Origin: a virus
Lineage: Duplodnaviria > Heunggongvirae > Uroviricota > Caudoviricetes
Strand: one strand, 5' to 3'
IMG/VR virus record: IMGVR_UViG_2526164665_000018
Length of the DNA stretch: 12,481 nt
Below the pieces are notes generated by a model. The model ran no database searches. It was given only the letters and a program-made list of their open reading frames with translations, and was not told the DNA's origin. Shown piece after piece: positions 46-6,212 of this stretch. Numbering within the stretch: the stretch's first letter is position 1; each line of letters starts with the position of its first letter. The position numbers and the translations under genes are program-made.

Positions 46-372
46 ATGACTAAAAATACTCGTTTTTCCCCCGAAGTCCGTCAGCGGGCGATTCGTATGG
101 TTCTGGAAAGTCAGGATGAATATGACTCACAGTGGGCGGCAATTTGTTCCATTGCCCCAAAGATTGGCTGTACGCCGGAGACTCTGCGTGTCTGGGTTCG
201 CCAGCATGAGCGGGATACCGGGGGCGGTGATGGTGGGCTCACCAGTGCTGAACGTCAGCGTCTGAAAGAGCTGGAACGTGAAAATCGTGAACTGCGCCGC
301 AGTAACGATATCCTTCGCCAGGCTTCCGCTTATTTTGCGAAGGCGGAGTTCGACCGCCTCTGGAAAAAATGA
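46..372 (+). CDS. IS3-family transposase OrfA (helix-turn-helix/leucine-zipper part)
   Basis: 108-aa [25 protein letters not shown]... recognised as IS629-type OrfA. It ends in an A6 slippery run (364..369) where the IS3-family -1 frameshift into OrfB occurs. Confidence 0.9.
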
Positions 373-1259
373 TGCCACTGCTGGATAAGCTGCGTGAGCA
401 GTACGGGGTCGGACCGGTATGCAGCGAACTGCATATTGCCCCGTCAACGTATTACCATTGTCAGCAACAGCGACATCATCCGGATAAACGCAGTGCCCGT
501 GCGCAGCACGATGACTGGCTGAAGAAAGAGATACAGCGCGTATACGATGAAAATCACCAGGTATACGGTGTGCGTAAAGTCTGGCGTCAGTTGTTACGGG
601 AAGGTATCAGAGTGGCCAGATGCACTGTGGCACGTCTCATGGCAGTTATGGGACTTGCCGGTGTTCTCCGGGGTAAAAAGGTCCGCACTACCGTCAGCCG
701 GAAAGCCGTTGCCGCATGCGACCGCGTAAACCGTCAGTTCGTGGCAGAACGTCCAGACCAGTTGTGGGTGGCTGATTTTACCTGGGTAAGCACATGGCAG
801 GGCTTCGTTTATGTGGCGTTCATCATTGATGTGTTCGCCGGATACATCGTGGGATGGCAGGTCTCATCATCCATGGAAACAACATTCGTGCTGGATGCAC
901 TGGAGCAGGCGTTGTGGGCCCGTCGGCCGTCCGGCACAATCCATCACAGTGATAAAGGTTCTCAGTATGTATCGCTGGCCTACACGCAGCGGCTTAAGGA
1001 AGCCGGATTACTGGCATCAACAGGGAGTACTGGCGACTCGTATGACAACGCGATGGCTGAGAGCATCAATGGTCTTTACAAAGCGGAGGTAATACACCGT
1101 AATAGCTGGAAAAACCGGACAGAAGTGGAACTGGCCACACTAACGTGGGTGGACTGGTATAACAATCGACGATTGCTGGAAAGGCTGGGCCATATTCCTC
1201 CGGCAGAAGCAGAAAAAGCTTATTATGCTTCCATCGGAAATAATGATCTGGCAGCCTGA
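369..1259 (+). CDS. IS3-family transposase OrfB (DDE catalytic domain), normally expressed as an OrfAB fusion by -1 frameshifting
   Basis: 296-aa ORF overlapping OrfA in the -1 frame, with the typical DDE-transposase layout (...WVADFTWV...HSDKGSQY...YDNAMAES...). Identical in protein sequence to the minus-strand copy at 4909..5799. Confidence 0.9.
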
Positions 1260-1302
1260 GTTCACAGATAAAATACTCTCCAGGAAACCCGGGGCGGTTC
1301 AG

Positions 1303-1569
1303 CGTGATGTTGATCGCGCAGAAACAGATTTACTTATCAACCTGTCAACGCTTACCCAGCGCGGTCTGGCAAAGATGATTGGCTGTCATGAATCGAAGAT
1401 AAGCAGAACGGACTGGAGATTTATTGCTTCGGTCTTGTGTGCTTTCGGAATGGCATCAGACAACAGTCCGATTAGCAGAGCTTTTAAGTATGCGCTTGAT
1501 GGACTCACCAATAAAAAACGCCCGGTGTGCAAGACCGAGCGTTCTGAACAAATCCAGATGGAATTCTGA
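1303..1569 (+). pseudogene. cII: cII transcriptional activator homologue, 5'-truncated by the IS insertion
   Basis: The frame open after the IS end encodes ...GLTNKKRPVCKTERSEQIQMEF, matching the recalled lambda CII C-terminus (..ILTNKKRPAATERSEQIQMEF) and helix-turn-helix region. The first ~8-10 codons are missing. Position immediately upstream of O matches lambda order. Confidence 0.75.
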
Positions 1570-1601: not shown

Positions 1602-2473
1602 ATGACAAATACAGCAAAAATACTCAACTTCGGCAGAGGTAACTTTGCCGAACAGGAGCGTAATGTGGCAGATCTCGATGATGGTTACGCCAGACTATCA
1701 AATATGCTGCTTGAGGCCTATTCAGGCGCAGATCTGACCAAGCGACAGTTTAAAGTGCTGCTTGCCATTCTGCGTAAAACCTATGGGTGGAATAAACCAA
1801 TGGACAGAATCACCGATTCTCAACTTAGCGAGATTACAAAGTTACCTGTCAAACGGTGCAATGAAGCCAAGTTAGAACTCGTCAGAATGAATATTATCAA
1901 GCAGCAAGGCGGCATGTTTGGACCAAATAAAAACATCTCAGAATGGTGCATCCCTCAAAACGAGGGAGGTTCCCCTAAAATGAGGGACATCCCTCAAAAC
2001 AGAGGGACACAAAAGACACTATTACAAAAGAAAAAAGAAAAGATTATTCGTCCGAGAATTCTGGCGAATCCTCTGACCAGCCAGAAAACGATCTTTCTGT
2101 GGTTAAACCGGATGCTGCAATTCAGAGCGGCAGCAAGTGGGGAACAGCAGAAGACCTGACCGCCGCAGAGTGGATGTTTGACATGGTGAAGACCATCGCA
2201 CCATCAGCCAGAAAACCGAATTTTGCAGGGTGGGCTAACGATATCCGCCTGATGCGTGAACGTGACGGACGTAACCACCGCGATATGTGTGTGCTTTTCC
2301 GCTGGGCCTGCCAGGACAACTTCTGGTCCGGTAACGTGCTGAGTCCGGCCAAACTCCGCGACAAGTGGACCCAGCTCGAAATCAACCGTAACAAGCAACA
2401 GGCAGGCGTGACAGCCAGAAAACCAAAACTCGACCTGACAAACACTGACTGGATTTACGGGGTGGATTTATGA
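1602..2473 (+). pseudogene. O: Replication initiator O, frameshifted inside the ori iteron region
   Basis: N-terminal frame (1602..2159) matches recalled lambda O (MTNTAKILNFGRGNFA...). C-terminal frame (open from 1979, first Met at 2099, to 2473) matches the lambda O C-terminus (...SGSKWGTAEDLTAAEWMFDMVKT...GVDL). The two parts are in different frames; total length 872 nt is not a multiple of 3. Confidence 0.75.
1950..2050. repeat. ori-lambda-like origin: three iterons (each an inverted repeat, TCCCTC...GAGGGA) followed by an A/T-rich stretch
   Basis: atccctcaaaacgagggag / gttcccctaaaatgagggac / atccctcaaaacagagggac at 1950..2008, then aaaagacactattacaaaagaaaaaagaaaag. Lambda has four iterons at this position inside O (established knowledge). 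Confidence 0.8.
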
Positions 2474-4866: not shown

Positions 4867-4908
4867 TGAACCGCCCCGGGTTTCCTGGAGAGTATTTTAT
4901 CTGTGAAC

Positions 4909-5799
4909 TCAGGCTGCCAGATCATTATTTCCGATGGAAGCATAATAAGCTTTTTCTGCTTCTGCCGGAGGAATATGGCCCAGCCTTTCCAGCAATCGTC
5001 GATTGTTATACCAGTCCACCCACGTTAGTGTGGCCAGTTCCACTTCTGTCCGGTTTTTCCAGCTATTACGGTGTATTACCTCCGCTTTGTAAAGACCATT
5101 GATGCTCTCAGCCATCGCGTTGTCATACGAGTCGCCAGTACTCCCTGTTGATGCCAGTAATCCGGCTTCCTTAAGCCGCTGCGTGTAGGCCAGCGATACA
5201 TACTGAGAACCTTTATCACTGTGATGGATTGTGCCGGACGGCCGACGGGCCCACAACGCCTGCTCCAGTGCATCCAGCACGAATGTTGTTTCCATGGATG
5301 ATGAGACCTGCCATCCCACGATGTATCCGGCGAACACATCAATGATGAACGCCACATAAACGAAGCCCTGCCATGTGCTTACCCAGGTAAAATCAGCCAC
5401 CCACAACTGGTCTGGACGTTCTGCCACGAACTGACGGTTTACGCGGTCGCATGCGGCAACGGCTTTCCGGCTGACGGTAGTGCGGACCTTTTTACCCCGG
5501 AGAACACCGGCAAGTCCCATAACTGCCATGAGACGTGCCACAGTGCATCTGGCCACTCTGATACCTTCCCGTAACAACTGACGCCAGACTTTACGCACAC
5601 CGTATACCTGGTGATTTTCATCGTATACGCGCTGTATCTCTTTCTTCAGCCAGTCATCGTGCTGCGCACGGGCACTGCGTTTATCCGGATGATGTCGCTG
5701 TTGCTGACAATGGTAATACGTTGACGGGGCAATATGCAGTTCGCTGCATACCGGTCCGACCCCGTACTGCTCACGCAGCTTATCCAGCAGTGGCATCAT
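4909..5799 (-). CDS. IS3-family transposase OrfB (copy 2)
   Basis: 296-aa ORF identical to 369..1259. Confidence 0.9.
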
Positions 5800-6122
5800 T
5801 TTTTCCAGAGGCGGTCGAACTCCGCCTTCGCAAAATAAGCGGAAGCCTGGCGAAGGATATCGTTACTGCGGCGCAGTTCACGATTTTCACGTTCCAGCTC
5901 TTTCAGACGCTGACGTTCAGCACTGGTGAGCCCACCATCACCGCCCCCGGTATCCCGCTCATGCTGGCGAACCCAGACACGCAGAGTCTCCGGCGTACAG
6001 CCAATCTTTGGGGCAATGGAACAAATTGCCGCCCACTGTGAGTCATATTCATCCTGACTTTCCAGAACCATACGAATCGCCCGCTGACGGACTTCGGGGG
6101 AAAAACGAGTATTTTTAGTCAT
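5796..6122 (-). CDS. IS3-family transposase OrfA (copy 2)
   Basis: 108-aa ORF identical to 46..372. Confidence 0.9.
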
Positions 6123-6212
6123 CCTGTTTACCTCTTTCTCAGGGAGTTTAGTCTCCAGGATTTCCGGGGCGGTTCACACCACGCAGTTCGTCAGGCAAAG
6201 AGAAAGGCCAAT

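Follow-up and report, generated by a model that had tools for sequence, protein, structure and literature searches.

The question raised by this locus is what becomes of a phage regulatory gene when an insertion sequence ends inside it and an open reading frame that starts in the element runs on into the gene. The DNA analysed here (the window) makes up one whole draft contig, of 12,481 bp, from E. coli DEC10A. An IS629 element ends at position 1301 within the 5' part of a cII gene, as comparison with IS629 and alignments with the cII genes of strain H19 and phage HK629 agree, and the original prediction interpreted this as an IS insertion which had truncated cII and created an in-frame IS-cII hybrid. 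Two things have to be decided: how the joint was formed, and whether the hybrid frame could give a working CII protein. The explanation which fits the observations best, and which we hold with considerable confidence, is that the locus carries a dead 3' remnant of cII beside an IS629-linked deletion of 3,076 bp, and that the hybrid frame is accidental.

The prophage is lambdoid, adjoins ybhC and belongs to the E. coli O26:H11 lineage; in the form seen here it is defective and decaying. Position 1 of the window lies inside IS629, the contig starting 9 nt into the element at a typical assembly break in a repeat, and the left flank of this IS copy (copy 1) is outside the DEC10A contig. The left flank was deduced from near-identical complete genomes with the same junction; an 80-nt junction probe has a 100% match in 21 complete E. 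coli genomes. All 21 belong to a lineage which includes the O26:H11 strain 11368, and two markers of this lineage, a 67-bp deletion in the replication gene O and a second IS629 at the same site, are also present in DEC10A. These genomes are nearly clonal, and conservation of the open reading frame among them is uninformative on selection either way.

Copy 1 occupies 1-1301 on the plus strand and corresponds to IS positions 10-1310, the first 9 nt being lost to the contig start. With the IS629 copy in the annotation of phage BP-4795 it shares 99.8% identity. It encodes orfA (46-372, plus strand, 108 aa, with an HTH_Tnp_1 domain) and orfB (369-1259, plus strand, 296 aa, with the rve DDE integrase core), and between them the ALIL pseudoknot, a -1 frameshift signal, is found at 327-443 on the plus strand (Rfam RF01497, 121.5 bits); at the gathering threshold Rfam gave nothing beyond two ALIL pseudoknots. 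The right terminal inverted repeat lies at 1277-1301 (plus strand) and was delimited by comparing the left and right repeats of copy 2, which match at 22 of their first 25 positions. The terminal bases of the right end are ...GGGGCGGTTCA, the last one at 1301, and the full left end, TGAACCGCCCCGGAAATCC, is visible in strain E2865. Copy 2 (4867-6176, minus strand) has no mismatches to copy 1, is complete with 1310 bp, is inverted relative to copy 1 and has CAC, a 3-bp target duplication, at its ends, as a simple insertion should; the open reading frame which it splits belongs to the nin region. Identity, the length of 1,310 bp, the imperfect terminal repeats of about 25 bp, the orfA/orfB arrangement with its -1 frameshift signal and the DDE (rve) domain all place the element as IS629 (IS3 family, IS51 group). 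In the relatives copy 1 has no 3-bp target duplication: its left flank is GAG and its right flank GCG, compared with CAC on both sides of copy 2. The identity of the IS is not in doubt; the mismatch of its flanks marks a rearrangement.

To the right of copy 1 a cII remnant extends on the plus strand from 1302 to 1569, so that it begins with the last base of codon 11 and ends with the stop codon, and includes the helix-turn-helix and the C-terminal ...TERSEQIQMEF. Gap-free alignments of this segment were obtained with cII of phage HK629 (96.6%) and with the intact cII, of 99 aa, which this prophage has in the O26:H11 strain H19. The Pfam profile Phage_CII (PF05269) scores 116.5 bits on the remnant over profile positions 6-91 of 91 (cut-off 21.3), close to the 119.7 bits of a full-length CII protein, and PHROG 191 is matched with E = 1.6e-35. 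The alignment with lambda CII which the original prediction had proposed as a check places the remnant at residues 9-97 of PDB 1xwr (HMMER, E = 1.8e-7), so the gene is a cII homologue as had been supposed.

The loss, first estimated at roughly 8-10 codons, amounts by comparison with H19 to codons 1-10 (MEQTSYSKLS in H19) and 2 nt of codon 11. In H19 the gene starts ATG GAA CAA ACA AGT TAC AGC AAA CTA TCA CAG CGT GAT GTT, and the junction in the window reads ...GGT TCA/GCG TGA TGT T, the slash marking the end of the IS. The IS-terminal CA and the G at 1302 together restore codon 11 (CAG, Gln). In our alignment CII proteins vary most over the 10 residues which are missing here, and by the HMMER, Pfam and family alignments these residues appear to precede the ordered CII domain. 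Among the features by which a CII gene is recognized, the match to the family profile, the conserved C-terminal tail and the overlapping oop antisense RNA are present. The native start codon and N-terminus are absent, and so is the cro-cII-O context with the pRE -35 repeats (TTGC-N6-TTGY), of which it can be said that O does follow the remnant. The native CII is inactivated, as predicted, through loss of its first 10 codons, its start and its ribosome-binding site.

The hybrid frame itself is as it had been described. An ATG at 1225, inside the 3' end of orfB, opens a frame of 114 aa (1225-1569, plus strand) which crosses the junction and ends at the cII stop codon; an alternative ATG at 1243, the one chosen in RefSeq, gives 108 aa. 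Both candidate ATGs are inside orfB, in a frame different from that of orfB. The 26 N-terminal residues ascribed to the IS are made up of 25 purely IS-encoded codons and the rebuilt Gln, two bases of whose codon come from the IS-terminal CA. A usable start downstream of the junction, which would have undermined the hybrid reading, was not found before ATG 1375; this next in-frame start corresponds to Met36, in the middle of the helix-turn-helix. Start codons occur in just one of the three frames which leave the right end of IS629, and an in-frame fusion therefore had a prior expectation of about one in three, no more than chance.

The window copy carries one further change, a T to A at 1463 (plus strand) which replaces Ile with Asn. 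It is private to the window: all complete genomes with the same junction carry T at this position (99.8%, one mismatch in 551 nt), and each of the 12 full-length homologues in the alignment has Ile there; lambda CII has another residue at the aligned position. The change may reflect relaxed constraint or an error in the draft sequence.

The formation of the joint is best approached from the left flank. In 19 of the 21 genomes the IS is preceded by a truncated sieB gene, and in the remaining two (08_4358 and PV0838) by a truncated TolA-like gene; cro or the 5' end of cII was found to the left of the IS in none of these 21 complete genomes. In E2865 the truncated sieB abuts the IS directly (...GTTCTGAACAGGGGGATGGAG/TGAACCGCC...). 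In strain H19 this prophage occupies the identical site and its early region is unbroken: sieB is followed by an N-like gene, two small open reading frames, a CI-type (LexA-family) repressor, a Cro-like gene, cII, and intact O, P and ren; the identities of SieB, the N-like protein, the CI-like repressor, the Cro-like protein and CII were confirmed by PHROG matches. The distance in H19 from the last retained sieB base to the first retained cII base is 3,076 bp. What is gone from the deleted allele is the 3' part of sieB, N, the two small open reading frames, the CI-type repressor, the Cro-like gene and cII codons 1-10. The lost cII codons hold, on the opposite strand, a TTGC-N6-TTGT repeat, the counterpart of a CII-binding site in the annotation of HK629, and with these codons the pRE -35 repeats have disappeared. 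In lambdoid phages pL, pR and the operators sit in intergenic DNA between these early genes, and the intergenic DNA between the deleted genes is also gone. One deletion from sieB to codon 11 accounts for a cII which has lost the DNA on its pR side, its start, its ribosome-binding site and the pRE-cI target.

A simple insertion of IS629 would place the 5' part of cII, cro and pR just to the left of the IS, and a chimera could then be made from read-through or IS transcripts. The right junction taken alone does resemble such an insertion, and the left flank in DEC10A lies beyond the contig. It speaks against a simple insertion that no 5' end of cII and no cro precede the IS in any of the 21 genomes with an identical junction, that the flanks of copy 1 have no target duplication whereas copy 2 has one, and that DEC10A shares the 67-bp O deletion and the second IS629 site of the lineage. 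We regard it as extremely unlikely. The truncated sieB or TolA-like gene on the left, the missing target duplication and the intact region in H19 together argue for an IS-bounded deletion, and from these comparisons the joint at 1301 is to be read as the right-hand scar of an IS629-bounded deletion of 3.1 kb in a degraded prophage. The part of the original prediction which stated that cII is truncated at the IS end stands; the part which ascribed the truncation to the insertion as such does not, and since the contig begins inside the IS the deletion could not have been seen from the window.

The TolA-like gene, which lies between cIII and sieB, has an internal stop codon even in H19 (L004 4598-5566; homologues in L002 and L003), and some of the decay of this prophage thus predates the IS629 event.

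The history which we propose is the following. A copy of IS629 would have entered the early region, either in sieB or in cII. The DNA from about codon 69 of sieB to codon 11 of cII would then have been lost, by an IS-adjacent deletion or by recombination between direct IS629 copies, so as to leave one IS without a target duplication. The loss would have taken N, the CI-type repressor, Cro, the start and ribosome-binding site of cII, the pRE -35 repeats and the intergenic DNA of the pL, pR and operator type. The frame of 114 or 108 aa would be an accident, the ATG-bearing frame of the IS happening to meet the frame of cII. Transcripts over the hybrid would be possible only as read-through from the IS or from sieB, and the main CII target, pRE-cI, would no longer be present in cis.

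The mechanism of the deletion may be considered in the light of what has been published on IS629. The element and the IS-excision enhancer (IEE) occur in O26:H11, and IEE-dependent deletions beside an IS range from a few nt to more than 40 kb and are formed by microhomology end joining (PMC9943667). Scars with microhomologies of 2-4 bp and deletions near the length of the IS have also been described (bioRxiv 10.1101/2023.06.07.543989). Structural polymorphisms and deletions associated with IS629, and the IEE-promoted excision of the IS, in enterohaemorrhagic E. coli were the subject of Kusumoto et al. (2011), as cited by Calvo et al. (2023; PMC9943667). An IS-adjacent deletion of the present size thus has documented counterparts with IS629 and IEE (PMC9943667).

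Within the same deletion history, differing in mechanism alone, two direct copies of IS629, one in sieB and one in cII, might instead have recombined homologously and deleted the 3 kb between them. Flanks which do not match, here GAG and GCG, are exactly what such an exchange predicts; these genomes hold many copies of IS629, and the copies are identical; and exchange between the copies at the locus is demonstrated by the inversions in 10159, 7_12_30A and PV0838 described below. We put its probability at about a third or slightly less. Against it, among the genomes examined none was found with IS629 at the sieB site alone, at the cII site alone or at both, and the one-sided deletions in sister strains which have kept the IS would each need an extra insertion.

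The deletion with its single IS629 was not the end of the changes at this locus, as the sister alleles show. Ten genomes, 11368 among them, have sieB' joined straight to 'cII without the IS and without GCGTGA. The joint in 11368 (L003 9297-9310) is formed at a TG common to the start of the IS and the cII flank, with 1,316 bp lost, and its cII remnant is marked as a pseudogene by RefSeq. In 98E11 (L005 425-445) GAG, the IS and GCGTG have been lost, 1,318 bp in all, and the ends are again joined at TG; this joint makes a sieB-cII hybrid open reading frame, WP_100023898.1, which RefSeq calls a 'CII family transcriptional regulator'. The two losses of the IS are independent events. In both of them the whole IS and a few flanking nt were removed and the ends joined at a microhomology within the range of 2-4 nt, which is the pattern of IEE-type excision.

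The window allele keeps cII and sieB bases which are absent from the IS-less alleles, and it must therefore represent their ancestor and not their descendant. The reverse order, with the IS-less allele of 11368 as the ancestral one and the IS inserted later, was considered and is ruled out, as the window retains the authentic GCGTGA of cII.

Other sister strains have kept the IS and lost DNA on one side of it. The right flank in 93_0495 (L006 8340-8360) is deleted through O and P into codon 11 of ren, and in 08_4358 (L007 4216-4484) and PV0838 (L009 2217-2485) a leftward deletion runs through sieB' into the TolA-like gene. The segment of 3,565 bp between the two inverted IS629 copies, cII'-O-P-ren-ninB-ninE, is flipped in 10159, 7_12_30A and PV0838: in the first two strains the junctions are 4,875 bp apart (= 1,310 + 3,565) on opposite strands, and for PV0838 the gene order itself shows the inversion. 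The decay of the locus continues through such IS629-linked events, namely loss of the IS, one-sided deletions and inversions.

Compared with the IS629/IEE system as it is known, the element here is the same, the O26:H11 lineage is one in which IEE has been reported, deletions lie beside a retained IS, and the losses of the IS, of 1,316 bp (11368) and 1,318 bp (98E11), took a few flanking nt with them and were joined at microhomologies of 2 nt. No mechanistic difference was seen. The locus serves as an illustration of how IS629, probably together with IEE, erodes prophages in EHEC lineages. That prophages are eroded by IS629 is already well known from EHEC genomes, and in this respect the locus opens no new question.

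There remains the question of whether the chimera could be made and could work. A crude scan of the plus strand from 1 to 1750 found no sigma-70-like promoter. The Shine-Dalgarno pairing energy is -1.9 kcal/mol for ATG 1225 and -3.5 kcal/mol for ATG 1243, the median of all ATGs in the window being -2.5. The native cII site is also weak (-3.3), and the argument against the hybrid from ribosome binding is weak for this reason. As sieB, the IS and cII' are co-oriented, read-through transcripts are plausible. A single-sequence AlphaFold2 model of the 114-aa hybrid had a mean pLDDT of 43, which is too poor to judge the fold. Judged from its sequence, a translated chimera could fold and bind DNA, nearly the whole CII domain being kept. 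The C-terminal TERSEQIQMEF is identical to that of lambda CII, in which the C-terminus is a degradation tag for FtsH.

The sequence elements of the antisense oop RNA have also been kept. A tO-like hairpin followed by a T run, found by a terminator scan at 1515-1545 on the minus strand inside the 3' end of cII, is the terminator of the oop antisense RNA, and a pO-like promoter for oop (TTGAGT-17-CATAAT, the second hexamer being preceded by TG) lies at 1599-1627 on the same strand; an oop feature is annotated at the homologous place in HK629. The remnant thus resembles the lambda cII-oop module (PF05269; PHROG 191; 1xwr, 1zpq, 8igr) in belonging to the same family, in having the ...NKKRP..TERSEQIQMEF tail and in lying directly upstream of O, with an antisense oop promoter and terminator over its 3' end. 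It differs from lambda cII in having no codons 1-10, no start, no ribosome-binding site, no pRE -35 repeats, no cro upstream and no cI target, and the hybrid differs from lambda CII in that its N-terminus consists of 25 IS-encoded residues.

It may be imagined that the hybrid, expressed at a low level by read-through from sieB or the IS, works in trans on pRE, pI or paQ of the other lambdoid prophages, those of Stx phages included, or of incoming phages which share its CII type, and biases them towards lysogeny, or that it has a toxicity of the CII type. The CII domain, the helix-turn-helix region and the C-terminus are intact, the same type of cII is common in Stx1a- and Stx2a-converting phages, RefSeq lists an intact regulator on 66 contigs, and lambda CII is able to act in trans from plasmids (PMC5869508). 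Yet the hybrid has neither a promoter nor a good ribosome-binding site, a foreign extension of 20-26 residues stands directly before the match to the CII domain, and the window copy carries the Ile to Asn change. The oop module is kept, and in lambda OOP abolishes the activities of CII (PMC5869508). In sister strains the open reading frame has moreover been broken on three or more occasions (11368 type, 98E11 and 93_0495). Such a working hybrid must be considered very unlikely. The chance is slimmer still for the specific case in which the chimera is translated from read-through of sieB or of the IS, still binds DNA and works in trans at CII-dependent promoters in lambdoid phages of the same CII type, whether these are resident in the cell or newly arriving and with the Stx phages included; if it did, it would shift the lysis-lysogeny balance of such phages in O26:H11. 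The hybrid frame is most likely a neutral by-product of the deletion and a mis-annotated pseudogene, and most likely no appreciable amount of the protein is made and it serves no function.

The window was also scanned for CII-box repeats (TTGC-N6-TTGC with at most 1 mismatch), which gave 15 hits where 19 were expected. The sole exact match, at 10411-10424 on the minus strand, is antisense near the 3' end of a Q-like gene and reminiscent of paQ. A convincing -10 element was not found at this box and the match is within chance expectation; it gives no evidence of a surviving CII target.

These results bear mainly on annotation and on the interpretation of accidental cII hybrids, which is where we see their value. 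The 108-aa hybrid is identical to WP_000638163.1 and EHW67394.1, which are labelled as an intact 'CII family transcriptional regulator' in RefSeq and GenBank. Both WP_000638163.1 and the sieB-cII hybrid WP_100023898.1 are remnants of a gene which has lost its promoter region, its start and its target, and both are over-annotated. The alleles in addition form a natural series which leads from an intact prophage to an IS-bounded deletion and from there to loss of the IS at microhomologies, to one-sided deletions and to inversions.

Downstream of the remnant the replication functions are damaged as well. Gene O (1602-2473, plus strand) is frameshifted by the 67-bp deletion, which falls between 1988 and 1989 and splits the gene into open reading frames 1602-2159 and 2099-2473; RefSeq notes it as 'frameshifted'. 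An alignment with the intact O of H19 shows that three of the six origin iterons are removed, and hence both the initiator gene and the origin are damaged. The frameshift is present in the window and in all three deletion-bearing genomes examined (E2865, 11368 and 98E11).

This prophage has lost its repressor-cro-N region, its replication genes are broken, IS copies have entered it, and morons such as the lpxR-like gene are retained; in all this it resembles the cryptic or defective lambdoid prophages of E. coli which are without their immunity region. It differs from them in that H19, with the intact ancestral form, coexists in one lineage with six or more derived structural alleles, and as all of these have been sequenced the order of the decay steps can be read directly.

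The lpxR-like gene is a 320-aa open reading frame at 8309-9271 on the minus strand, which by the annotation of its relatives codes for a lipid A deacylase of the LpxR family. It lies between a truncated Q remnant and a second gene for a Q-type antiterminator (9662-10435), and has the appearance of a moron inserted among the late-regulatory functions.
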